From NCBI GenBank assembly GCA_964353645.1, contig CAYGWR010000001.1, forward strand, positions 7,091-71,090: a DNA stretch of 64,000 bases, written 5' to 3'. This stretch comes from an uncultured Dehalococcoidia bacterium (GTDB lineage: Bacteria; Chloroflexota; Dehalococcoidia; SZUA-161). Below are positions 43,489-58,231 of this stretch, piece after piece; the stretch's first letter is position 1; each line of letters starts with the position of its first letter. The notes beneath the pieces were generated by a model. The model had not been told where the DNA came from and made no database searches. It saw only the letters and a program-made list of their open reading frames with translations. The position numbers and the translations under genes were made by a program.

Positions 43489-46413
43489 TCAGCTCTGCCT
43501 TTTCAACCAAAAAACAGCAGCAAAGAGGGTTAATCCTATTAAGAATAGGAAGGCTGGAATCCTTGTATGTATCCAGGGTTGTGCTTGGCTGGCTGATGGG
43601 GAGGTTGTTAGGTTCGGCATAGGCGTGAGCTTGGGTGTGAAGTCGGGAGTAGGAGTGATGGCGGTGGGGGTTGGTGTGGACAAGAATGGGGATCTTGTTG
43701 TGGGTGTAGGCGTGGGCGATGGTGGGGGACCTGACGTCGGTGTAGCAGATGGCAGGCCGTAGCCTGGGGTGGGAGTCGCATTGTCCACAAAATCGCCGGC
43801 TTGGTTGGTATCCAGTCCAGCGGGTCGTCGCTCCAGTGAGTGGCCTTCGGGCACATACCTGCAAGGTGGTGACATTATGGTATTGTCGTCGCCGTAGGAG
43901 AGTGCGTCGATGATCTTACCTGTAGGGTCTAGAAGGGTGAGTCGATCCCCGGTGTTGCTTAATCCGTTGCCTATACTGCCATCATTTAGAAAGACTATGT
44001 TGCCGCTGAAGCTGGGAAAGTTGGTGTAGAAGTCAGCTCTGGCGGCGACCACGGCGAAACCACCCGGAGGCAGAGTCAGGGAGGGGATAGGGTCAGTCTC
44101 ATAGTTGTCGCCGATTCTCCAATCGGTCAGGTCAACTGTCCGGCTAGTGCGGTTGAAAAGTTCCACCCACTCAAACGCAGACTCTACACCTGTCTGAGGG
44201 GGGTCATATTGAACCTCGTTGATTACGATGTCGCCTTCATTTGCCGGAGTTGGGTTGGGTGTCAGGGTAGGTACTGGCGAAGGAGCAGGCGATGGGGTTG
44301 GTGTGGGCATGGGGGTGAATGTAGGCGAGGGCGTTATGGTAGGTGTAGGTGTGGGGGTAGGGGTTGGAATAGGCGTTGATGTGGAAGGGGGTGTAGGTGT
44401 GGGTGTAGGTGTGGGTGTAGGTGTGGGTGATGGTGTGGGTGATGGTGTGGGTGATGGTGTGGGTGATGGTGTTGGCATCTCTGTAGTAGATGGCAAGCCG
44501 TAACCCGGGGAAGGAGTCGCATTATCCACAAAATCGCTGGCCTGGTTTGTATCCAGCCCAGCGGGTTGACGCTCCAATGAGTGACCTTCAGGCACATCTT
44601 GGCAAGGCGGCAACATTATGGTGTTATCTTCGCTGTAGGAGAGTGAGTCGATAATCTTCCCCGCTGGGTCTACAAGGTTGAGTCGATCCCCGGTGTTGCT
44701 TAATCCGTTACCTATGCTGCCATCGGCCATAAAAACTATATTGCCGCTGAAGTCGGGGAAGTTGGTGTAAAAGTCAGTTCTGGCGGCGACCACAACAAAG
44801 CCACCTGGAGTCAGAGTCAGGGTGGGGAGAGGATCGGTCTCATGGTTATCGCTGATTCTCCAACCAGTCAAATCGATTGTCTGCCCTGTGCGGTTTAGAA
44901 GCTCGACCCACTCGAAAGCTGTGTCTGTACCTTCTTGTGGGGGGTCATATTGGATCTCGTTAATTACGATGTCACCTTCGTTTGTCGGGGTAGGGATGGG
45001 CGTAGCGGTTGGTGCCTGGGTGGGAATTGGTGTGGATGTAGGTGTTGGCGTTGGCATAAGAGTCGGCGAGGGCATTGGGGTGGGGGTGGGTGGCGGTGAC
45101 GGGCTAGGCGTGCGCGTGGGAGTTGGCCTTGGTGTAGGCCTGGGCGTGTGCGTAGGCGTTAGGGTCGGCGTTATGGTTGGCGTTGGGGTAGGGGTAGGTT
45201 CTAAAGTGGGTGTAGGAGTTGGGGCAACCGTAGGAGTGGGAGAAGGTGTGGAGGTTGGGCCGGTAAAGCTGAAGTCATCAAAATAGACGGTGGCAGGAGT
45301 TGCAGAATGAGGAACCACCATAGCCTTAACCCTGGCCGAGTGTGCGTTTGGCGGTGCAGTTACCTCGCTAGTGGTCAGGGGGCTGTACTGGCACTGGTCA
45401 TACGTCAAGGCAGCCAGTGAATCATTGTGAGATAATTCCGGTCCGAAGCCATCGTCGCTATCGTACCAGGAAATTCGCAGAAAGACGCTGTCAATATTAG
45501 GGTCGTTTTTCAGTGCATAACCACAAAGTGTATAGGTTTCTCCTCCTTGTATCGGAACGGTTTGATACACCCAGATTGTGCTTACAGTACTGGAGTTCAG
45601 GGCCGCAGCGTAAGCCCCGCTCTGGACAGGAGATTCAACTACGGAAAGAAAGCCTCCATAGGTTAACCAGTTGGCAGTGCCATCCTCGAAGCCCGGGTTT
45701 GTGAGGAGCAAGTTTGGGGCGCAGGTAGGGTTAGAAATAGGTATTGTTTCGATAAAGCTCATGTCGTCGAAGTAGGCAGTGACAAATTGCCCAGGGTTAG
45801 CGAGTCTCACTATGCCCTTCACTTTTGCTGAATGGGCGTTGGCTGGGGTAGTGTGGGTGCCCGTAGTAAGAAAGCGGTAATCAATAGGATTATCAGCAAA
45901 ACTGTCGGACTCATTGCGTTTGATCTCGCTGCCGGTCCCGTCCTCACTTTCATACCATGAGATCCGCAAGGAGATATTGCCTTCGTAGATGCTGTTCTTA
46001 AATGCCCATCCGCTAAAAGTACAACAGGATCCGGGTGACACATGAACTGTCTGAGAGATGTAGGCCTCCGCTTCGCTCGCAATAAGGACAGCAGCTCGAC
46101 TTCCACCATGAACGGGATTATCTATGTAAGTCAGAATGCCACCGTACCATTGCCAACCATTTGTACCATCCTCAAAGCCTGGGTTCTGCAAAAGGTTAGG
46201 CGCGTCTGCGGCGTGGAGGGAATTCGTGGAAATGCTCAAAATTATGATAAGGATGATGAAGATTATTATTTGGGAATTTTTCAATTCAAAGGAGCACTTT
46301 CTTGGAAGATGCTCATATATTAGAGGTTTGGGGAAATTAGTCAAGTCTTCAAAGCAACGACAGCCTGCAAGGGCAGGTTGGGAACCCGACCTACCCATTT
46401 TATCGCCGTCCAT
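43489..46413 (-). CDS. large cell-surface protein: signal anchor, 2x CBM_4_9-like domains, 2x lamin-tail domains (LTD) separated by Pro/Thr-rich linkers, C-terminal TM anchor
   Basis: Two domains begin N(L/P)[10 protein letters not shown] (aa ~70-225 and ~230-385). Two LTD copies begin GDIVINE(I/V)QYDPPQ...FEWVEL.NRT (aa ~479-640 and ~727-890). Linkers are rich in PTPTPT. The C-terminus is [22 protein letters not shown]. The start codon is uncertain. Confidence 0.8.
43720..44980. repeat. intragenic tandem duplication (~740-bp unit, ~85% aa identity) encoding LTD + PT-linker modules; PT-linker microsatellite-like (ACC/CCA)n tracts
   Basis: The two LTD copies are near-identical over ~160 aa. 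The low-complexity linker DNA also produces spurious antisense ORFs encoding GVGVG and HPHHHP. Confidence 0.7.
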
Positions 46414-51130: not shown

Positions 51131-51817
51131 TCAGCCCTGCCATAGCCTGTGAGCTTCCTCAAGGTCACCAGGAAAATCGATATCGGACCAGGGGCGGTCC
51201 GTGGCCAGCACATTCACAAATAGACCGCTGTCAACCAGGCCTTGGATGAGTTGAGGGAATGTGGTGCCCAAATTGGTATGGGCAATCTGTTCAAGCTGAC
51301 TAACTAGTGCCGGAATGGCATTTTTAGGGAACATGGCCACACCAATGAACTCTCCAAACGGCTTAGTCACGTCTTTACCTATAGCTTTTACAAGCCCGTT
51401 CTGCAGGACGACTTTCTCGGCCTCTCTGTCCATGCTTCTCGGATCCACGACTAAAAGGATATCATTCCCTCTACTCACAACCTCTTTAATCAGATTAGCT
51501 TCAAATAAGATGTCATCGTAGATCAATAAGAAGCCTGAACCCAACTCCTTTCTCACCAGCCAGAGATGCATTGCCACATTGCATATTTCGTAAAATGGAT
51601 TGAAAACACAAGACGCCCTTCCTGTGCAAAACTGCTCCACTTGGTCAGCCCCGAAACCAGTTATCACCAGTCGATCGCCGACACCGGCTTGTTCCAGTGC
51701 CTCAATCTGGCGGGCCAGGATAGCTTTGCCCCCCACCTCCAAGAGGCTGACTGGTTTGTGCTTGGTGAGTGGCAGCAACCGAGGACTTCTCGCTGCCGCA
51801 GTTATAATAGCCCTCAT
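51131..51817 (-). CDS. LicC/IPCT-like sugar-phosphate/phospho-alcohol nucleotidyltransferase paralog 1 (degenerate signature loop)
   Basis: MRAIITAAARSPRLLPLTKHKP aligns with the (G)xG(T/S)RL loop of the other two copies but reads AARSPRL. A shared C-terminal motif WSDIDFPGDLEEA is present. Confidence 0.65.
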   Translation of the reverse strand: MRAIITAAARSPRLLPLTKHKPVSLLEVGGKAILARQIEALEQAGVGDRLVITGFGADQVEQFCTGRASCVFNPFYEICNVAMHLWLVRKELGSGFLLIYDDILFEANLIKEVVSRGNDILLVVDPRSMDREAEKVVLQNGLVKAIGKDVTKPFGEFIGVAMFPKNAIPALVSQLEQIAHTNLGTTFPQLIQGLVDSGLFVNVLATDRPWSDIDFPGDLEEAHRLWQG

Positions 51818-51819
51818 TT

Positions 51820-52662
51820 TTAGCTTACTACTCCTGTGATAAGGCGCATGCGTATAAAAGCGCTTATACGATCAATGCAAATTACTGCGATGACCATTAC
51901 AAGTATAACAGTCAAGACTGCCGGGTTGTCAAAAAGGCGCGTGGCGTTGATGAGTTCAACTCCAATGCCGCCGGCTCCTACGAATCCTAATACGGTGGCA
52001 GCCCGGAAATTGTGTTCAAGGTAGTATAAAGTATAGCCAGCAAATAGAGGCCTTACCTGCGTCAGGATACCGTAGTAAATCGTCTGGATACGATTGGCAC
52101 CGGTTGAAGCTACGGCTGTGACTAGTTCGGCGTTTGTGGCTTCGATGGCCTCCGAAAAAAACCTACCGAGAGCGCCGATGTTGTGAACTGTCAGAGCTAG
52201 AACTCCAGGAAACGGACCAAGTCCCACCATAGAGACAAATACCAAGGCCCAGATTATCTCATTGATGCCTCGACAGAGGTCGAAGAATGTACGGGTAGCC
52301 TGGTAAACAGGCCAGTAAGGCATTACATTGCGGGCCGCTAGAAATGAAAGCGGCAGAGCTATTATAGCGCCAAACGTAACGCCCATTATAGCCATCTGGA
52401 TGGTCGTACCCAGCGGGCCCATAAGTCCACCGAGTATGCCCATATCCGGAGGGAACATGCGCTTTACATAGTCATACACGTAGGGCATGCCACGGAAGAA
52501 AGTAACTGGATTGGACTCAGTGCCCCTAATCGCCCATACATAAATGGCGACAATGGCCACCATCAAAGTGATATGGCGGAGCTTAGTTCCTAAATGCTCA
52601 ACAGGTATCTTTATCCTAGAATCCCCTCTTGCCATAGAGAATCCAATCCTCCGTCTCGCCAT
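51820..52662 (-). CDS. phnE: phosphonate-type ABC transporter permease
   Basis: A 280-aa permease with about six helices and the EAA-like loop (ALGRFFSEAIEAT). It is adjacent to the phnC and phnD homologs. Confidence 0.8.
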   Translation of the reverse strand: MARRRIGFSMARGDSRIKIPVEHLGTKLRHITLMVAIVAIYVWAIRGTESNPVTFFRGMPYVYDYVKRMFPPDMGILGGLMGPLGTTIQMAIMGVTFGAIIALPLSFLAARNVMPYWPVYQATRTFFDLCRGINEIIWALVFVSMVGLGPFPGVLALTVHNIGALGRFFSEAIEATNAELVTAVASTGANRIQTIYYGILTQVRPLFAGYTLYYLEHNFRAATVLGFVGAGGIGVELINATRLFDNPAVLTVILVMVIAVICIDRISAFIRMRLITGVVS

Positions 52663-53428
52663 AGATGTCTATTATATCCTTATCTGTAAGCTCAGCGGGG
52701 GTGTTATCGAAAACGATCTGCCCTTCCCTGATTCCAACCAAGCGAGTTGCATATGCTATGGCCATCTCGAGGAAGTGGAGGCTGGCCACTAGAGTCATGT
52801 CATGCTCCGTGCAGATATCCTTGATGAGGTCCATGATCTCCTTCATCAACTTTGGGTCCAAGCTCGACACTGGCTCGTCTGCAAGGAGGATACTGGCACG
52901 TTGCGCCATAGCCCGGGCTATCGCAACCCGCTGCTTTTGTCCACCACTCAAGTCGCTGACCCGTTTATTAGCGAACTTCTCAAGCCCTACTCTTCTTAGG
53001 CAGTCAGTAGCTGTAGCAATATCTTCTTCGCTGAATCGCCCAACTATACTCTTAAATGTGCCCACATACCCAAGCCTGCCCACCAATACGTTCTTTAGCG
53101 ATGTCGCCCCATCAATCAGGTTGAAATTCTGGGAGATCATTCCTATTTGGCGACGAACCAGCTCGACCTCTTTCGTGGGCAGACTGGTGATTTCTTTTCC
53201 ATCAATGAAGACCCTGCCTTTGGTGGGCTTGATGGAAAGGTTTGTACATCGGAGCAGTGTGGACTTGCCAGACCCACTTGAGCCCAGAATCACCACGCGC
53301 TCACCTTTGCTGACCTTCAAGTTGATATCCTTGAGGGCAGCCTCTGTCTTTTTCTTGCCATCGGAGCCGGAAGAGCCTGAGCGAGCCCTTATTGGATAGT
53401 TATGACTGAGTTCCTCTAACCTTATCAC
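52616..53428 (-). CDS. phnC: phosphonate-type ABC transporter ATP-binding protein
   Basis: Walker A GSSGSGKST, ABC signature LSGGQKQRVAIARA and Walker B ILLADEP. Confidence 0.85.
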   Translation of the reverse strand: MIRLEELSHNYPIRARSGSSGSDGKKKTEAALKDINLKVSKGERVVILGSSGSGKSTLLRCTNLSIKPTKGRVFIDGKEITSLPTKEVELVRRQIGMISQNFNLIDGATSLKNVLVGRLGYVGTFKSIVGRFSEEDIATATDCLRRVGLEKFANKRVSDLSGGQKQRVAIARAMAQRASILLADEPVSSLDPKLMKEIMDLIKDICTEHDMTLVASLHFLEMAIAYATRLVGIREGQIVFDNTPAELTDKDIIDIYGETEDWILYGKRGF

Positions 53429-53444
53429 CTCTTCTACCTCTTGT

Positions 53445-54326
53445 CTAAAGACCCAGTAAGTCGCGCGTTTCCCGAATGATATCGTAGTCGGAAGGTGTTA
53501 CCTTCACGTACTTCGCGATGTCTCCCCAGCCTTGAACTGTATAAATAATCTGCTGATCCATGTCAATAAGTGCTTGCTGTATTTTGTCCTTCAGATCCTG
53601 AGGAAGATCTCCTCTGACCACAATAGGCGAACCAGGTATCGGTGATGACTCGTAGATGATAACGTTAACATTTGGGTCAATCTGGCCCGCTTTGACCATG
53701 AGGTTGTACGAAGTATCGCTGTCAGCCCCAGCGTCTACGCTGCCGTTCTTAACGGCAAGCTCAACTGCATTGTGAGTGCCTGCGTAATACGAGGTTGAAA
53801 AGTCTTTCTGGATGTTGATTCCATTATCCAGCAGTATTTTCTTTGGTATCAAACACCCCGATGTAGAGGCTGGGTCTACGAATGCGAATGAGTGGCCCTT
53901 AAGATTATCAAGCGTTTTTATGCCCGAATCTGCTTTGGTGACGAAAACGGTCTTATAGGTCGAGAGGCCACTGTCCCTCCTCACACCGACTACTAGCGGC
54001 TCTGCGCCAGCTTCATCAGCCGCCAATACGTATGTGAAAGGCCCAAACCAAGCGATATCTATGTGCTTATACCGCATGGCCTCGACAGCAGCGGTGTAGT
54101 CGCTGGTTACTTGGAGTGTGACCTCCATATCGAGCTTCTGTGAGAGGTAATCAACCACCGGTTGATATTGGCGTAACATTGAAGCAGCGTCGTCTGCAGG
54201 AATAAGACCCCATCTAAGGACTTTTATCTCACCTTCTCCTTTTCCACCACAGCTCGTCCCACCCAGTGACATGAGAACCAATACAAGGGCAATCACCATA
54301 TACAATACTTTACTGGCCCGTTTCAT
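53445..54326 (-). CDS. phnD: phosphonate/phosphite-type ABC substrate-binding lipoprotein
   Basis: It has a signal peptide plus lipobox (GGTSC) and a PhnD/SsuA-like periplasmic binding fold (DIAWFGPFTYVLA, TSGCLIP). Confidence 0.8.
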   Translation of the reverse strand: MKRASKVLYMVIALVLVLMSLGGTSCGGKGEGEIKVLRWGLIPADDAASMLRQYQPVVDYLSQKLDMEVTLQVTSDYTAAVEAMRYKHIDIAWFGPFTYVLAADEAGAEPLVVGVRRDSGLSTYKTVFVTKADSGIKTLDNLKGHSFAFVDPASTSGCLIPKKILLDNGINIQKDFSTSYYAGTHNAVELAVKNGSVDAGADSDTSYNLMVKAGQIDPNVNVIIYESSPIPGSPIVVRGDLPQDLKDKIQQALIDMDQQIIYTVQGWGDIAKYVKVTPSDYDIIRETRDLLGL

Positions 54327-54437
54327 CGTACGTCTCCTTTTTAAAATTGTAACTTAATCCCATCCTAATATCGCAGTACCGCAACGCGTGCTATCTACAA
54401 AACAGAACTCAAAGATTATTTTAAGAAGACCAGTCCT

Positions 54438-55196
54438 TTAGCTGCTATCGGCGAACTTTCTTCGCGCTTCCTCTAAGTCCTGAGGCGTGTCGATCTCTAT
54501 CCAACCTCCTTTGATATCAACAGTCGTAATTCTGCGCCCTGTGTCCATAAGTTCCTGTAGCATATCGCTTAGATAGGCGCCATCGAGTGATAGGGAGCGA
54601 TGAAAGGGGGCTGCTGGGCGTTCTTTGGCCACCCTGTGGTAGGCATCTCTCATCTCTTGGCTACCCACTCTGCTGAATTTGGCTAAACCTATGAACTCTC
54701 CATAGGCGTTATCAGGTTTAACCACCCCCTTACCTATTGCCGTCACTCTTCCATTATCGACATTGACGAGCTCAGCCTCCGAGACAGGATGCTTGTCGCG
54801 ACCCCTATAGCGCTTACTCCAGTCAATATCTACAGTGAGAACTGAGTCTGCATTCCCACCGTCAAGGAGCTTTGCGACAGTGTCGCTACTATAGATAATA
54901 TCGGAGTATGAGATGATGAGGTCATCATTCATCTCACTTTGGGCGCAGAACAACGATCTCAGTATATTGGTTTTTGCGTAATTAGGGTTCTCGTAGTATG
55001 TAATATCGGGATAGTTAATAAGGTTGCTGTGATAACCTCTTACCACTGCAATCCTGTTAATACCATTGGCCCTAAGAGCATCCAGGGCTCTCTGAAGGAT
55101 CGTCTTGCCGCCAATCTCAAGAAGACATTTTGGCTTTTCATTGGTGAGAGGCCTGAGGCGAGTGCTGGGACCGGCAGCAACTATGATAGCCTTCAT
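54438..55196 (-). CDS. LicC/IPCT-like cytidylyltransferase paralog 2 (canonical signature)
   Basis: MKAIIVAAGPSTRLRPLTNEKPKCLLEIGGK matches the nucleotidyltransferase G-x-G-(S/T)-R-L loop and K of the LicC/GlmU/RmlA fold. It has the C-terminal WIEIDTPQDLEEA. Confidence 0.75.
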   Translation of the reverse strand: MKAIIVAAGPSTRLRPLTNEKPKCLLEIGGKTILQRALDALRANGINRIAVVRGYHSNLINYPDITYYENPNYAKTNILRSLFCAQSEMNDDLIISYSDIIYSSDTVAKLLDGGNADSVLTVDIDWSKRYRGRDKHPVSEAELVNVDNGRVTAIGKGVVKPDNAYGEFIGLAKFSRVGSQEMRDAYHRVAKERPAAPFHRSLSLDGAYLSDMLQELMDTGRRITTVDIKGGWIEIDTPQDLEEARRKFADSS

Positions 55197-55217
55197 GGCA
55201 GCACCTCTAATTACTGA

Positions 55218-56264
55218 CTATTCAACCTTTAGTATCGAATGCAACCGTCTGCTTACCCTGTTGAAATCTTCCAAAGTGTCGATCTCTGCCCAACCACCGT
55301 GAATGTCGATGTGGCGTACCGGATATCCCTGGTCTATCAACTCCTGGATCAGGTCGGTGAAATATGCCTTGTCAGTCGAAGGCGATGTATGAAAGGCCTT
55401 TGACTGGTAATTCTGAATAGCCCAATTGTGGATTGTCTTTAGCGTTTCTGCACCGCTTTTTCTGAATTTTGCCAGCCCGATGAACTCACCATGGGCTTCA
55501 TTGGGTGGTACGAGGCCCTTTCCAATCTTTGTTATTCGGTCTCCTTCAACTCTAACTAATTCAGCATCGGAAACTGGATGCTGGTGGCGTTTGAGGTAGT
55601 GGTTTTGCCAATCGATGTCCACCACAAGCGAGATATCAGACTGGTCCCTGAGCAGCAATTCCAGCACTCCCTTAGTGTATAAAATGTCCGCATAACAGAA
55701 TATGAAATCGTCATCAATCTCGTCTTTGGCATAGAAGAAGGACTTCAAGATACCGGTATTTTTGTAGTCGCTGTTTTCGTAGTACCTGATACCGGGGTAA
55801 CTTATCTTGTCCCCCTGGTATCCCCGTACTAACACGATGTCATATATGCCGCATGCCCTAAGGTTTTCCAGTTGCCTGCTGAGGATGGTCTTATTCCCGA
55901 CCTCCAGAAGACACTCTGGCTTATCCTTGGTAAGGGGCAGCAGGAGGTTACTCTCCCCGGCAGCTACAATGATCGCTTTAATCTTCGGGAATATAGCCAG
56001 TGAGCTGAGGTCGAGCCCGCGCCGAAGGATTTCGTCCAAATAGGCATCCCAAACATCTTGTCCCCGACTCTGGATAATAGCTTCGGCGAGTCTGTCAGCT
56101 AGCTTATCGCCAAGATGATTTAGAATTTTGCGGTGTAACTGTCGGCCGAGTATGGTTGTTATTGTCTCGTCAGCGGACTTAGAAGTTCCATGGCGTAGAC
56201 GCTTGTGTCCCGCCAGACCCTGCGTGGTCTTGAAAATGCCCCCACAGATTTCGCATGTAAACAT
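55218..56264 (-). CDS. C2H2-type zinc finger fused to LicC/IPCT-like nucleotidyltransferase (paralog 3)
   Basis: The N-terminus CEICGGIFKTTQGLAGHKRLRH is a C2H2 finger. After a ~90-aa linker comes IKAIIVAAGESNLLLPLTKDKPECLLEVGNK and a C-terminal WAEIDTLEDF. It is ~45% identical to paralog 2. Confidence 0.7.
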   Translation of the reverse strand: MFTCEICGGIFKTTQGLAGHKRLRHGTSKSADETITTILGRQLHRKILNHLGDKLADRLAEAIIQSRGQDVWDAYLDEILRRGLDLSSLAIFPKIKAIIVAAGESNLLLPLTKDKPECLLEVGNKTILSRQLENLRACGIYDIVLVRGYQGDKISYPGIRYYENSDYKNTGILKSFFYAKDEIDDDFIFCYADILYTKGVLELLLRDQSDISLVVDIDWQNHYLKRHQHPVSDAELVRVEGDRITKIGKGLVPPNEAHGEFIGLAKFRKSGAETLKTIHNWAIQNYQSKAFHTSPSTDKAYFTDLIQELIDQGYPVRHIDIHGGWAEIDTLEDFNRVSRRLHSILKVE

Positions 56265-56639
56265 GAGTACTGAGTATAATACTGAGTTACTGGAAAAATG
56301 TCAATAGTCATTTACGTCTCTTGACAAATGGCGGTGGATAGTGTACCTAAAAAGCACCAGAAATACGGATACAAAGAGAGGTATTTAAGATGAAAAATTG
56401 TTTGAGTTTGGCAGCGATGTCTGTTTTGCCTTCCTTCTACTTGATGTCCCGCGATATGACAGATGCAGCTTTTAGTCACGGAAATGGAATTACGGCCCTT
56501 CAGCTAGCTATCGCTGTGCTGGTAGGAGCGCTTTATACAGCTAATCACTTCAAAGGCAGAATCAAGACGTTTTTTAAGTACTCGTCCTCTAAAAGTAGGA
56601 AGGGGTGAGGGAACGAAAGGCTAGCAGAATAGAATTTGT

Positions 56640-57251
56640 TTATCTATAAATGCTTCGTACATAGCGCACATACTTGATTACGTAGTACAGGGAAACCAGG
56701 AACGTAGCAAGGAGAACAATCTCTGCATAACGCCAGTCGATAATGTGTACCATAATCGTGGGATAAACAAAAGCAGCCAGAAGGTTTGTATCCAGGTGCG
56801 GTATCGTAAAACCGCCTTTCTTCTTTGAGATAAGCCCTACCACAAGAAGTGCAAAAGCTATCAATATCAATCCTGCTGCAAGCAGCCAGTAAGTTTCGAA
56901 CTTAATAGCGAGGCCAACTATTGCGGTATAAACCAGAACGAAATCGGCCAAACCGTCAAAGGTTGCTCCGTAGGTAGTGGTCTTTTTACTTCTCCTGGCA
57001 AAATATCCGTCAAGCAGGTCGGTTATCGCGGCGGCAGCGAAGAGGTAATAGGCAGCATCCGTTCTATTAGAGAATATGAGCCATACAACTACAGGGGCTA
57101 CAACAATCCTGGAGCCGGTAAGAACGTCTGCCAATCTCAAAGCTTTGATGGGCCTTCTCTTCGTTTTCTGAGCAATCTTTGATTCTAGACCCAGTGTTTC
57201 CGGGAACGTGATATAATACCTGACACAAGAAAGAATTGTTGAATCGAGCAT
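56640..57251 (-). CDS. CDP-alcohol phosphatidyltransferase family membrane protein
   Basis: The signature D(x)2DG(x)2AR(x)8G(x)3D(x)3D appears as DLLDGYFARRSKKTTTYGATFDGLADF. It has about six TM helices and is 203 aa. Confidence 0.75.
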   Translation of the reverse strand: MLDSTILSCVRYYITFPETLGLESKIAQKTKRRPIKALRLADVLTGSRIVVAPVVVWLIFSNRTDAAYYLFAAAAITDLLDGYFARRSKKTTTYGATFDGLADFVLVYTAIVGLAIKFETYWLLAAGLILIAFALLVVGLISKKKGGFTIPHLDTNLLAAFVYPTIMVHIIDWRYAEIVLLATFLVSLYYVIKYVRYVRSIYR

Positions 57252-57319
57252 CAGGTAGTTTACACGAGTATAGTGGCAATGTTTTCATGTTGTCAAGATG
57301 TGCAGCTAACGTATAGCAT

Positions 57320-58231
57320 GTGGAAAGCGATCTAGAAACGGATGGTAATATGAAAAAAGATAAACCAAGCGCTACCGCAGAGGCCAACGCTGCTTTCAGG
57401 GCTGCGGAGTTGCTGAGACCAAAGAACGAGCAAGTTTGTGAAGACCGGTTCGCAAGACGTTTCCTCGGCCTGAGATTCGGTATCATAGCCCGGAGCAGAT
57501 TACTTACCGGGATTGCGCGGTGGTACGTTGAGCGAATTATCCCCGGTGCTGCCAATAGCGTGGTGGCTCGAACCAGATATATCGATGATTACTTGAAGCA
57601 GTGTATTGACGCTGGCATAGAGCAACTGGTTATTCTGGGTGCCGGCTATGATTCCAGGGCCTACAGATTTGATGGACTTAAGGCAAGGGTCAGGGTCTTT
57701 GAAGTGGACCATCCCAACACACAGAGGGTTAAAATACAGAAAGTCAAAAAGATATTTGGCTCTCTTCCGAGCCACGTGGTCTATGTCGGGCTGGACCTCG
57801 ACGAAAAGAAGCTCGGGGAAGGGCTTCTGGAAAGCGGCTATGACAAGGGTAAGAAGACCCTTTTCATCTGGGAAGGCGTCACTGTGTACATTATCCCGGA
57901 GGCTGTGGATGAGACCCTGGCTTTTGTGGCTGAGAACTCAGGCAAAGGTAGCTGTATCATTTTCGACTACGCGTTTCAGTCGGCTTTCGATGCAGCTTCA
58001 GAGAGTGGTGACGCCAAGAAGTGGCGGGAAGCTTATGAGCGCAGAGGTGAGCCTCCTAAGTTTGCCTTGAAAGAAGACGCTGTCGGTGATTTCCTCTCTA
58101 AGAGAGGGTTTTATCAAGTGAAAAGTGTCAGCCTGGAGTCGATAAAGAAGACCTACTTCAAAGGGCCTAACGCGAAGAGAAATGTGACGAACCTGGGGGG
58201 GATTGTTCAGGCGACTGTGGTACGCAGGTAA
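57320..58231 (+). CDS. class I SAM-dependent methyltransferase, LCM/TcmP-like family
   Basis: QLVILGAGYDSRAYRF and the EGVTVYI motif are typical of the Ppm1/TcmP O-methyltransferase family. Confidence 0.7.
   Translation: MESDLETDGNMKKDKPSATAEANAAFRAAELLRPKNEQVCEDRFARRFLGLRFGIIARSRLLTGIARWYVERIIPGAANSVVARTRYIDDYLKQCIDAGIEQLVILGAGYDSRAYRFDGLKARVRVFEVDHPNTQRVKIQKVKKIFGSLPSHVVYVGLDLDEKKLGEGLLESGYDKGKKTLFIWEGVTVYIIPEAVDETLAFVAENSGKGSCIIFDYAFQSAFDAASESGDAKKWREAYERRGEPPKFALKEDAVGDFLSKRGFYQVKSVSLESIKKTYFKGPNAKRNVTNLGGIVQATVVRR

Follow-up and report, generated by a model that had tools for sequence, protein, structure and literature searches.

The region under study occupies positions 51131-57251 of a 64,000-nt stretch (the window) of contig CAYGWR010000001.1 (GCA_964353645.1), from an uncultured Dehalococcoidia bacterium. 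As the preliminary description held, seven genes lie here on one strand, each open reading frame being found at its expected minus-strand position (Table 1), and a kinase domain is absent from all seven. In the window they are surrounded by housekeeping genes, ThiL, TsaBE, Ndk, RpoD and DnaG among them. Spacing is tight in places, with NT1 starting 2 nt past phnE and 111 nt separating the end of NT2 from phnD. An assembly artefact can be dismissed, because Logan ERR3804374 and JGI 3300048652, assembled independently, both carry NT3-NT2-PhnD-PhnC(-PhnE-NT1) at 99-100% identity. Synteny in relatives, suggested earlier as a check, was also found: the order NT3-NT2-PhnDCE-NT1 recurs in eight species-level genomes and a CDP-OH/LCM/NT3/NT2 block in at least ten. 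This recurrence shows that the arrangement exceeds chance. A promoter-like site before NT3, a consensus match only, is a candidate that would drive NT3-NT2-phnDCE-NT1.

Table 1. Features of the locus, in window coordinates.
Feature	Position	Strand	Characteristics
NT1, LicC-fold paralogue	51131..51817	-	Degenerate signature AAARSPRL...KPV
PhnE, ABC importer permease	51820..52662	-	TIGR01097, 285.1 bits (cut-off 216.7)
PhnC, ABC importer ATPase	52616..53428	-	TIGR02315, 292.6 bits (cut-off 266.1)
PhnD-family lipoprotein-type substrate-binding protein	53445..54326	-	PF12974, 241.5 bits
NT2, predicted catalytic cytidylyltransferase (PntC-like)	54438..55196	-	R13, K23, K156 intact
NT3	55218..56264	-	N-terminal C2H2 zinc finger, helical linker, LicC/PntC-fold domain
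Promoter-like site	56276..56304	-	TTGACA-17-TATTAT, 11/12 consensus matches; 12 nt upstream of NT3 start codon
72-aa ORF, two hydrophobic segments	56390..56608	+	Convergent on transferase
CDP-OH_P_transf, predicted head-group transferase	56640..57251	-	PF01066, 70.4 bits
Promoter-like site	57267..57296	-	TTGACA-18-TATACT, 11/12 matches; upstream of CDP-alcohol transferase
LCM/TIGR00027-type SAM methyltransferase	57320..58231	+	Divergent from transferase

The three nucleotidyltransferases all match PF12804 and have LicC, PntC and IPCT as their closest relatives, not the sugar-1-phosphate enzymes RmlA and GlmU, which bears out the LicC/IPCT-like fold first attributed to them. To call all three cytidylyltransferases was an overstatement, since the essential Lys is absent from NT1 and from NT3, as from every orthologue of either; the label remains a fair prediction for NT2, the only paralogue with the full signature GXG(T/S)RX4-8PK. 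The best solved relative of NT2 is Treponema denticola PntC (6pd1; E = 6e-14 from the single sequence, 3e-17 from the family profile), LicC is nearly as close and IPCT comes third with the profile. Equivalents of Arg15, Lys25 and Lys153 of Tde-PntC, whose mutants have activity below 10% (PMC6697681), are kept in 68 of 68 NT2 family members. NT3 is 50% identical to NT2; the catalytic Lys is missing from its domain, and the window copy has no Arg either. It may be a ligand-sensing regulator or a non-catalytic partner. Its conserved zinc finger (CxxCx12Hx4H, residues 4-25) had no place in the preliminary description. Wherever the gene past phnE is readable, NT1 accompanies PhnDCE.

The importer had been described as of phosphonate/phosphite type. 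For PhnC and PhnE this holds, both lying above the NCBIfam equivalog cut-offs and resembling the PhnCDE/PtxABC/GpxABCD systems (PhnT family, TC 3.A.1.9); the binding protein, at 261.0 bits against a TIGR03431 cut-off of 261.1, fits neither specificity well. It keeps every head-group residue (Y47, Y93, S127, T128, S129 and H157, E. coli numbering) and has a distinctive tail pocket, with Ser at position 205, where PhnD has Asp, PtxB its Tyr cap and GpxB the glycerol-binding Thr247, and Thr (Thr or Asn) at position 177, where PhnD has Glu. Its best solved relatives are the PtxB phosphite binders, yet the Tyr cap is missing, as is the E177/D205 pair that binds the 2AEP amine in E. coli PhnD. With both absent, neither phosphite recognition nor classical AEP recognition is indicated, and a polar, uncharged tail pocket makes an aminoethylphosphonate site of the E. 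coli type slightly less likely. Judged by sequence, nothing marks the protein as one that binds only phosphate or phosphite.

In the CDP-alcohol transferase the motif D-x2-D-G-x2-A-R-x8-G-x3-D-x3-D is complete ('DLLDGYFARRSKKTTTYGATFDGLAD'), as was claimed. Homologues measure 166-171 aa, so translation probably begins at 57140 and yields a 166-aa protein. Identity as an ordinary PgsA or PssA was considered and rejected, the scores (42 and 28 bits) falling far under the respective cut-offs (109 and 107); on sequence grounds the protein is a member of a small separate family (140 hits). Its nearest models are nevertheless lipid enzymes, PgsA and ClsA, and its neighbours in relatives include lipid genes (two FabH-like, KS, ACP, SDR, WS/DGAT-like and PlsA-like). 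The family also occurs in the order PF01467 cytidylyltransferase, OPA-MFS, CDP-OH in two loci, L091 and L093. In the complete genome L089 an LCM-CDP-OH pair stands with no NT or transporter nearby, which shows that the transferase can occur apart from the other cluster genes. The LCM methyltransferase is kept beside it in 11 loci and has a possible role in the pathway. The 72-aa open reading frame has homologues beside the transferase or beside NT2 in 15 loci, the distant L089, L091 and L093 among them, and its product may be an accessory membrane subunit. The divergent intergenic region common to transferase and methyltransferase holds the second promoter-like site, again a consensus match only, of a kind no commoner in the region than in shuffled sequence.

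The strongest evidence for the reading given below comes from comparison of the supply genes among relatives. At the chromosomal position occupied in the window by PhnD-PhnC-PhnE-NT1, L013 and L014 carry, after NT2, EamA (phn_DUF6-like), rSAM/SPASM, a PEP mutase (Ppm)~NT fusion and phosphonopyruvate decarboxylase (Ppd). The assignments of the last two rest on score and motif (Ppm, Pfam E = 1e-61, motif EDKRFPKVNS; Ppd, TIGR03297, 317.6 bits, cut-off 312.5), and in L013 the module is followed by metallophosphoesterase-ThiL-TsaE-TsaB-THEP1-Ndk, the flank that the window, too, has at 46.9-51.0 kb. L015 matches the window in LCM (89%), CDP-OH (86%) and NT3 (93%), then continues with NT2, EamA and rSAM. 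In these biosynthetic relatives the Ppm-fused NT domain is Lys-less, and no obvious AEP transaminase, Fe-ADH or ALDH acting past phosphonoacetaldehyde was seen. Other relatives have, in place of PhnDCE, a GlpT-like organophosphate:phosphate antiporter of the GlpT/PgtP family, to which AepP, an experimentally shown 2AEP permease, belongs (PMC8316502). Among 69 species-level genomes with NT2 homologues, this MFS lies within three genes in 31 and PhnD in eight; 39 of the 69, spread over Bacteria and Archaea, thus pair NT2 with an importer of phosphorus compounds. The 40 NT2-linked MFS proteins all retain R269 of GlpT, and R45 too except for Lys in five; all differ from GlpT at K80 (Gln), N162 (Gly), H165 (Tyr), Y266 (Asn; Asp in one) and E299 (Pro), the first four of which we take to line the substrate site. 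In a neighbour-joining tree the Dehalococcoidia NT2s intermingle whatever their cluster type (ABC, MFS or Ppm), which suggests a single substrate class. As Ppm/Ppd module or antiporter replaces PhnDCE-NT1, the pathway draws its input either from synthesis, in the form of a phosphonate, or from uptake. These exchanges support two earlier proposals, namely a logic of import, cytidylyl activation and CDP-alcohol transfer, and a cargo that already bears phosphorus.

Several known systems can be compared with the locus. With the Pnt pathway (Rice et al. 2019, PMC6697681; PDB 6PD1/6PD2) NT2 shares fold, full signature and the Lys153 equivalent; its orthologues stand beside Ppm~NT and Ppd, as PntC does, and Pnt clusters, too, typically hold two or more NTs. 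In contrast, identity is low (the alignment with Tde-PntC covers residues 2-187), an invariant Tyr occupies the position of the amine-binding Glu104, NT2 has an extra conserved basic/aromatic insert (D123...W126...Y130.GR..HP), and the substrate comes from an importer. The Burkholderiales 'CDP-OH' (group 1) clusters (Li & Horsman 2022, PMC8942020, and Yu et al. 2013 cited therein), whose product is predicted only, likewise bring together a free-standing PntC-like NT, another NT (Ppm-fused there, NT1/NT3 here) and a CDP-alcohol phosphatidyltransferase. Their predicted phosphonolipid core of CDP-OH transferase, PntC, Ppm~NT, Ppd and AEPT (PMC8942020) is present in L094, in an order (transferase ... 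PntC, Ppm~NT, Ppd) paralleling that of the Dehalococcoidia biosynthetic relatives. Here, however, Ppm, Ppd, AEP transaminase (AEPT), 2OG oxygenase and the LPG-synthase-like membrane protein were all absent from the 64-kb window, the two transferases have only the catalytic motif in common, and NT2 is 28% identical to the PntC of the Burkholderiales. The Lic system (LicB/LicA/LicC/LicD), Treponema LicCA with CPT and the eukaryotic Kennedy pathway also proceed from import through LicC-fold cytidine activation to transfer, the last step in Treponema and eukaryotes being by a CDP-alcohol phosphotransferase, as predicted for the window; the cluster differs in having no kinase, LicB-type permease or LicD. 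IPCT/DIPPS similarly joins a LicC-fold cytidylyltransferase to a membrane CDP-alcohol transferase, but the window proteins are unfused, score 62 bits against an NF041135 cut-off of 580, and have no inositol-phosphate synthase with them.

Taken together, we favour, at a probability of about 0.55, a phosphonate-salvage version of Pnt/Kennedy logic. The PhnD-type lipoprotein would take up an extracellular phosphonate for import by PhnCE, and membership of the importer in the phosphonate ABC family implies that the cargo bears phosphorus on arrival. It may be 2-hydroxyethylphosphonate, 2-aminoethylphosphonate, methylphosphonate or a related compound; 2AEP, the commonest natural phosphonate, does not appear clearly favoured because the binding protein lacks E177/D205 and NT2 has Tyr for Glu104. 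NT2, by its PntC/LicC signature and Ppm-linked orthologues, would convert phosphonate and CTP to CMP-phosphonate and pyrophosphate. The 166-aa transferase, possibly transcribed from its own predicted promoter, would then shift the phosphonyl head group from CMP to a membrane-bound hydroxyl, most likely of diacylglycerol or an ether-lipid analogue, yielding a phosphonolipid. No cytidylyl transfer is expected of NT1 or NT3, since both lack the essential Lys; NT3 might regulate the operon by sensing ligand, and NT1 might serve the supply module as a non-catalytic partner, like the Lys-less NT fused to Ppm. On this reading the cluster is an import-fed variant of the predicted, uncharacterised 'PntC + CDP-OH' phosphonolipid clusters. 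The gene combination, first described as uncharacterised, does have some precedent, for 'PntC + Ppm~PntC + CDP-OH transferase' clusters have already been catalogued as predicted phosphonolipid clusters (PMC8942020). If this phosphonate reading is true, and provided that no ppm gene lies elsewhere in the genome, beyond the 64 kb, C-P bonds could be displayed on the surface of a cell that is unable to form them.

The same logic could serve a phosphate ester (glycerol-1/3-phosphate, phosphoethanolamine or phosphocholine) in a Kennedy-type salvage giving PG-, PE- or PC-like lipids, a possibility we consider unlikely though worth keeping in mind. The transporter that stands in for PhnDCE is a GlpT/PgtP/UhpC-family protein; a G1P/G3P-binding PhnD-family protein, GpxB, is known (PMC12718374) and its Thr247 is matched by Ser here; TagD-like PF01467 enzymes adjoin the transferase in L091 and L093; and LicC is almost as near to NT2 as PntC. 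The first three of these fit glycerol phosphate as well as a phosphonate. Yet the window protein has nothing equivalent to Arg223 of GpxB, the four GlpT site residues are replaced in 40 of 40 MFS proteins, and PF01467 is also the other Ppm-fused phosphonate cytidylyltransferase family, with Fom1 and PhpF among its members, so that its presence beside the CDP-OH family supports a phosphonate too. A phosphate-ester cargo would also leave unexplained that Ppm and Ppd replace the importer at the same locus. Somewhat more doubtful is a non-glycerolipid acceptor for an imported and activated phosphonate or phosphoester, whether polyprenol-linked glycan, S-layer glycoprotein precursor or soluble alcohol as in DIPP synthase, leading to surface decoration or a solute. 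DIPPS is indeed a membrane CDP-alcohol transferase with a soluble product, the Aerophobus transferase (L003) is closest to AIP, DIPP and PIP synthases, STT3/AglB oligosaccharyltransferases are encoded close to it in the clusters of L004-L006, L026 and L033, and characterised bacterial phosphonate decorations are mostly on glycans (PMC6697681, PMC8942020). Against these stand the lipid character of the transferase's nearest models and neighbours, and the absence of a nearby inositol-phosphate synthase or phosphatase.

It is very improbable that the genes are unrelated neighbours, with PhnCDE scavenging phosphite, or phosphonate to be catabolised, as a phosphorus source, the NTs making nucleotide sugars and the transferase a housekeeping phospholipid synthase. 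The housekeeping surroundings, the kinship of the binding protein with PtxB, and the transferase's own promoter-like site and NT-free occurrence in L089 would fit such an idea. It conflicts with the NTs' affinity to LicC/PntC, the transferase's failure at the PgsA and PssA cut-offs and the missing Tyr cap. The operon appears tied to anabolic genes rather than to PhnWX or PtxD, and the gene after phnE is NT1, where ptx operons have ptxD; C-P lyase was sought in the window and not found. Finally, the close spacing within the operon, the order conserved in eight genomes and the pairing of NT2 with importers all point to genes that belong together.

Blocks of the cluster recur in relatives, a comparison that the preliminary description had suggested making. 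We gathered 80 species-level loci (labelled L003, L013 and so on) around homologues of NT2, one of the three LicC-fold nucleotidyltransferase (NT) paralogues of the cluster, and compared gene orders by our own ORF calling and BLAST. In Dehalococcoidia the left part is constant: a divergent SAM methyltransferase gene (LCM), then the CDP-alcohol phosphotransferase (CDP-OH; hereafter the transferase), NT3 and NT2. Downstream of NT2 come three interchangeable forms, here called ABC, MFS and Ppm (see Table).

The Ppm form carries the beginnings of phosphonate biosynthesis. Its PEP mutase (Ppm) matches Pfam with E = 1e-61 and contains the diagnostic EDKRFPKVNS motif, its phosphonopyruvate decarboxylase (Ppd) scores 317.6 bits with TIGR03297, over the cut-off, and the nearest model to its EamA protein is 'phosphonate utilization associated membrane protein'. 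Beyond the Ppm form, L013 continues with the metallophosphoesterase-ThiL-TsaE-TsaB-THEP1-Ndk flank of the window. In L015, where it is readable only through the EamA and radical-SAM genes before the contig stops, LCM, transferase and NT3 are 86-93% identical to those of the window. In close relatives, therefore, the import module and the biosynthesis module share one chromosomal slot. The most straightforward interpretation is that each supplies NT2 with the same kind of molecule and, since Ppm and Ppd occupy the slot, that this molecule is a phosphonate. PEP mutase adjoins NT2 orthologues in L013, L014, L041, L042, L062 and L077, in syntenic position in the first two. Dehalococcoidia NT2s from ABC-, MFS- and Ppm-type clusters interleave, with no split by module, in a neighbour-joining tree without bootstrap support, which fits action on one substrate class. 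The 64-kb window contains no Ppm, Ppd, 2-aminoethylphosphonate (2AEP) transaminase, 2OG oxygenase or C-P lyase. In the biosynthetic relatives no transaminase, alcohol dehydrogenase or aldehyde dehydrogenase is recognisable after Ppd, that is beyond phosphonoacetaldehyde, only the radical-SAM/SPASM protein.

In the window itself, our ORF reading returned all seven minus-strand genes exactly as first described, and none of them contains a kinase domain, again as described. They are transcribed in the order transferase, NT3, NT2, PhnD, PhnC, PhnE, NT1. A gap of 375 bp separates transferase and NT3, and the intervals from NT3 to NT1 are, in order, 21 nt, 111 nt, 16 nt, an overlap and 2 nt, a spacing that suggests a single NT3-to-NT1 operon. 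A promoter-like site at 56304-56276 (11 of 12 consensus matches) would serve this operon and another lies upstream of the transferase; both are consensus matches only, and promoter- and terminator-like sites are not commoner here than in shuffled sequence. No convincing intrinsic terminator was found within the cluster, and no cis-regulatory RNA was matched by Rfam between 49 and 60 kb (E <= 1). The same operon is found in two independent assemblies at 99-100% identity. The flanking genes are housekeeping ones (Ndk, TsaB/E, ThiL, IspH, PlsC, RpoD, DnaG) and close relatives are Dehalococcoidia MAGs.

Table. Features of the cluster in the window and of comparison loci
Feature	Position or loci	Strand	Remarks
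CDP-alcohol phosphotransferase	56640-57251	-	PF01066 70.4 bits; complete DxxDGxxAR..G..D..D motif
72-aa ORF	56390-56608	+	two hydrophobic segments, basic tail; convergent on transferase
NT3	55218-56264	-	PF12804
NT3 zinc finger	56190-56264	-	residues 1-25
NT2	54438-55196	-	PF12804; intact catalytic signature
PhnD-family binding protein	53445-54326	-	TIGR03431 261.0 bits (cut-off 261.1); TIGR01098 235.7 bits (cut-off 112)
PhnC	52616-53428	-	292.6 bits (equivalog cut-off 266.1)
PhnE	51820-52662	-	285.1 bits (equivalog cut-off 216.7)
NT1	51131-51817	-	PF12804
LCM	57320..58231	+	divergent from transferase
ABC form	window, L007, L010, L016, L018, L020, L022, L024		PhnD-PhnC-PhnE-NT1
MFS form	L004, L008, L009, L011, L012, L029, Aerophobus L003		one OPA-family transporter; best models PgtP, GlpT, UhpC
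Ppm form	L013, L014, part in L015		EamA, radical-SAM/SPASM, PEP mutase with C-terminal NT fusion, Ppd
Lipid-type gene sets	L004:13539-20750, L007:15687-19979, L091:123-4556, L093:3510-8040
N-terminally fused NTs	L027, L030, L031, L033, L035, L052, L091:4725-5825, L041:5102-7042, L028/L032/L036/L037/L039

The three paralogues had been taken for LicC-like cytidylyltransferases. Among solved structures all of them are indeed nearest to LicC or PntC, the best matches being 6pd1 and 1jyk for NT2 and 1jyk for NT1 and NT3, but the full catalytic signature is kept in NT2 and not in the other two. Nor do they group with sugar-1-phosphate enzymes, an outcome which by the preliminary description would have refuted the proposal: the NT2 family profile places PntC (3e-17), LicC (1e-16) and IPCT (1e-13) before the first sugar nucleotidyltransferase (2e-11), and the sugar-nucleotide reading is rejected on these scores. 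In enzymes with the GXG(T/S)RX4-8PK signature, Arg15, Lys25 and Lys153 are required for activity (Rice et al., PMC6697681). NT2 reads 'AAGPSTRLRPLTNEKPK', plus K156, and its R13, K23 and K156 are invariant in 68 of 68 members of a family that is 63-69% identical across Dehalococcoidia, Aerophobetes and others. At the position of the amine-binding Glu104 of Tde-PntC, NT2 has an invariant Tyr. With its signature intact, NT2 is the predicted catalyst of CTP + phosphonate -> CMP-phosphonate + PPi. A plasmid search with NT2 turned up only Cj1416-like enzymes, about 30% identical, beside gamma-glutamyl hydrolases, and these belong to a different pathway.

NT1 has Val at the Lys25 equivalent in all seven orthologues and a degenerate glycine motif. 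All zinc-finger orthologues of NT3 have Glu, Asn, Asp, Ala, Gly or Val at this position; their Arg15 equivalent varies and is Leu in the window copy. NT1, NT2 and NT3 all keep the Mg-binding aspartates, which implies that the fold persists and that a nucleotide or ligand is probably still bound. NT1 comes after PhnDCE at every locus with a readable gene after phnE, and the Ppm-fused NT domains of L013, L042 and L077 also lack the catalytic Lys; a Lys-less NT domain thus accompanies the supply module in both its import and its Ppm versions. The N terminus of NT3 carries, in 17 orthologues, a strictly conserved C2H2 zinc finger of the pattern CxxC-x12-H-x4-H with a helical linker. Other N-terminal extensions occur in the NT2 family: six loci have an RHH-like one, L091 and the Ppm fusion of L041 have HTH_3, and a further one is Asgard-specific. 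The catalytic Lys is kept in some of these fused proteins and absent from NT3. Such extensions suggest enzyme-derived one-component regulators and, because the family is recurrently fused to DNA-binding-like modules, NT3 is a putative ligand-sensing regulator.

The importer was correctly described as of PhnC/D/E type: PhnC and PhnE exceed their equivalog cut-offs, and PhnD is borderline, falling 0.1 bit short and passing its subfamily model. The closest solved relatives of the binding protein are the PtxB phosphite binders (E = 3e-48). We aligned it with Escherichia coli PhnD, whose numbering is used here, and three PtxB-type structures, with residue roles taken from PMC12718374. The head-group ligands Y47, Y93, S127, T128, S129 and H157 are all retained. 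Position 205 is Ser in nine of nine cluster binding proteins; in PtxB it is the Tyr cap over the P-H bond, in PhnD the Asp that binds the amine, and in GpxB, a binder of glycerol phosphate, Thr247 (PMC12718374). Likewise, Glu177, which with Asp205 binds the amine of 2AEP in E. coli PhnD (PMC12718374), is replaced by Thr or Asn in all nine, and the window protein has 'PGSPI' where PtxBs have 'PQYPW'. Because of the residues at 205 and 177, the protein would seem to be neither phosphite-specific nor an E. coli-type 2AEP binder, and its tail pocket is predicted to be polar and uncharged. Phosphite uptake of the Ptx kind is rejected on the missing Tyr cap in the nine orthologues and on the presence of NT1, not ptxD, after phnE.

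The transporters of the MFS form belong to the organophosphate:phosphate antiporter (OPA) family. One signature is common to all 40 MFS proteins adjoining NT2 homologues, from Dehalococcoidia and Planctomycetota to Bathyarchaeia and Asgard archaea. Arg269 of GlpT is retained, as are the surrounding tyrosines and Arg45 (conservatively Lys in five), and the proteins differ from GlpT by K80Q, N162G, H165Y, Y266N (Asp in one, L023) and E299P, at positions which we take to line the GlpT substrate site. As this uniform signature departs from GlpT, they form a dedicated subfamily and are not GlpT proper. An OPA-family antiporter as phosphonate importer has experimental precedent in AepP, the 2AEP permease of Pseudomonas putida (PMC8316502). 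NT2 and antiporter are paired in Dehalococcoidia, Anaerolineae, Planctomycetota, Saccharibacteria, Bathyarchaeia and Asgard archaea. The archaeal pairs lie in Heimdall-/Hodarchaeota (L028, L032, L036, L037, L039) and Bathyarchaeia/Geothermarchaeales (L021, L023), and the Asgard loci also carry a second, divergently transcribed NT paralogue. Planctomycetota have a triad of GlpT-like MFS, NT2 homologue and MetE-like protein (Meth_synt_2, 355-407 aa) in 15 loci (L064-L085, e.g. L064:9690-11526), with neither transferase nor Ppm nearby.

The transferase, whose translation shows the D(x)2DG(x)2AR(x)8G(x)3D(x)3D motif on inspection, as originally noted, is no ordinary PgsA or PssA, which had been held out as a reason to abandon the proposal. 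It scores far under the PgsA, PssA and ClsA equivalog cut-offs (TIGR00560, 42 against 109 bits; TIGR00473, 28 against 107; NF053678, 45 against 240), and its sole PDB match is a weak one to PgsA (7drj, E = 4e-4). The family is small, with 140 detectable homologues of 166-171 aa, a length which implies that the true start is probably at 57140. Outside the Dehalococcoidia arrangement it occurs as [PF01467 cytidylyltransferase][OPA-MFS][transferase] in L091/L092 and L093, PF01467 being the other cytidylyltransferase family found fused to Ppm (PMC6697681). That a non-homologous enzyme stands in for the activating one speaks for a functional link, as opposed to gene order that was simply inherited. 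Because cytidylyltransferases are linked to the transferase in the window, L004-L018, L091 and L093, we infer that its donor is a soluble CMP/CDP head group and not CDP-diacylglycerol. A counter-example is seen in a complete 2.1-Mb Dehalococcoidia genome (L089:7220-8765), where LCM, transferase and the small ORF lie together with no NT or transporter within 8 kb, and with a 2.6-kb stretch without called genes.

This small ORF, of 72 aa in the window, has homologues beside either the transferase or NT2 at 15 loci, the distant L089, L091 and L093 among them, and its product may serve the transferase as a small subunit. Near the cluster in relatives there are also lipid-type genes, encoding two FabH-like proteins, KS, ACP, SDR, a 380-aa methyltransferase, DUF362, SRPBCC, a WS/DGAT-like condensation protein, amine-oxidase-like flavoproteins and a PlsA-like protein of 1430 aa. 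Such gene sets may supply the acceptor lipid.

Taken together, these observations favour a route in which extracellular phosphonate would enter via PhnDCE, NT2 would cytidylylate it and the transferase would move the phosphonyl head group onto a membrane acceptor, most likely a lipid. We put the probability of this phosphonate salvage at roughly 0.55. The more general scheme, in which some phosphorus-bearing head group is imported, cytidylylated by NT2 and transferred by the membrane enzyme, we consider likely. It would also accommodate a phosphate ester as cargo, for instance in a glycerol-phosphate/CDP-glycerol route, an idea prompted by GpxB (PMC12718374) and by the GlpT-like MFS. Arg223 and Thr247 of GpxB bind the glycerol hydroxyls (PMC12718374); comparing by position relative to the His, we find Ser at the Thr247 equivalent (His+48) and no evident Arg at His+24. 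The exchange of the importer for Ppm and Ppd speaks against an ester, as does the uniform replacement of GlpT K80, N162, H165 and Y266 in the NT2-linked MFS, and we have accordingly demoted the glycerol-phosphate route to an unlikely one. The acceptor might be something other than a lipid, but with lipid genes as neighbours in relatives a lipid is favoured and this variant seems quite improbable. That unrelated genes simply happen to be neighbours is hardly credible.

Among described systems the closest are the phosphonyl-tailoring scheme of Rice et al. (PMC6697681) and, more specifically, the 'Burkholderiales CDP-OH' group of predicted phosphonolipid clusters, whose products were never characterised (PMC8942020). 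Its seven-gene core comprises Ppm~NT, Ppd, AEP transaminase (AEPT), 2OG oxygenase, PntC, CDP-OH transferase and an LPG-synthase-like protein; one example, from Mycetohabitans (L094), has the CDP-OH transferase, 2OG oxygenase, LPG-synthase-like protein, PntC, Ppm~NT, Ppd and AEPT. The window shares with this core a PntC-like NT, a second NT and a CDP-OH transferase. When the L094 proteins were run against the window by tblastn, genes for Ppm, Ppd, AEPT, 2OG oxygenase and the LPG-synthase-like protein were all missing. NT2 and the L094 PntC share just 28% identity, and orthology of the two transferases was tested and not found, only the motif being in common. Resemblance to the Lic pathway is limited by the absence of a kinase or LicD domain among the seven genes and their neighbours, and an IPCT/DIPPS reading was rejected (NF041135, 42-62 bits against a cut-off of 580; proteins unfused). 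In a diatom, 2AEP uptake and inferred lipid incorporation via CMP-AEP have been proposed (PMC9765203). The claim that the gene combination is uncharacterised holds in that the searchable literature yielded no import-fed bacterial or archaeal equivalent, but the predicted CDP-OH phosphonolipid clusters (PMC8942020) come close to it. The window cluster is thus a variant, with imported substrate, of a cluster type itself only predicted.

Phosphonate producers are at present counted by the ppm gene, and PhnCDE and AepP importers are usually read as serving catabolism for phosphorus or nitrogen. An importer tied to a cytidylyltransferase and a CDP-alcohol transferase would instead mean that scavenged phosphonates are reused intact as structural head groups, adding a new sink to the phosphorus redox cycle. 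The C-P bond is chemically and enzymatically very stable, and slow-growing anaerobes of sediment and groundwater would gain stable C-P lipids or surface groups without the cost of C-P synthesis. NT2, the binding protein, the 166-aa transferase and the zinc-finger NT3 offer a testable protein set for the long-open question of bacterial phosphonolipid assembly, which the NT2-antiporter pair carries to Asgard and Bathyarchaeia archaea. More speculatively, and with the odds somewhat against it, a Ppm-independent salvage of phosphonates for anabolism may be widespread in cells unable to make C-P bonds, running from PhnDCE or GlpT-like import through NT2 to lipids or surface, with dead NT paralogues alongside and NT3 as a new zinc-finger ligand-sensing transcription factor. 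In that case ppm-based surveys would undercount phosphonate-carrying organisms, and a share of the environmental phosphonate pool would be recycled whole instead of being mineralised.

Several neighbouring observations deserve mention. NT2 homologues of 44-49% identity lie in Ppm clusters (L041:5102-10768, L042:9986-14881, L062:9968-15850) with a Cupin_2/HTH_3 protein (HEPD/MpnS-like), Ppm~NT and Ppd, along with Fe-ADH in L041 and L062 and a Phosphodiest-family protein in L041 and L042. In make-up they resemble clusters for hydroxyethyl- or methylphosphonate, and the last gene in that of L042 encodes a CDP-OH transferase. A Planctomycetaceae Ppm~NT/rSAM/EamA cluster has an APS-kinase-like gene after Ppd (L077:15852-16588), the product of which, by analogy with Cj1415, might 3'-phosphorylate CMP-phosphonate. 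The arrangement matches the 'radical SAM + adenylylsulfate kinase' neighbourhoods noted in Campylobacter (PMC8942020). Elsewhere in the window, a 974-aa protein with two lamin-tail (LTD) domains (43489-46413, minus strand), probably a surface protein, lies in a 2-kb stretch of unusually high GC skew (0.28). Look-ups by exact sequence gave no match for this protein or for the LCM product, probably because start codons are called differently. At the 3' end lies a Hachiman anti-phage pair (60723-64000, plus strand), HamA (PADLOC PDLC00161, E = 2e-114) and, behind it and truncated where the window ends, the HamB helicase (PDLC00188, 1119 bits); GC drops from about 0.50 to 0.42 across this stretch, suggesting an acquired island.
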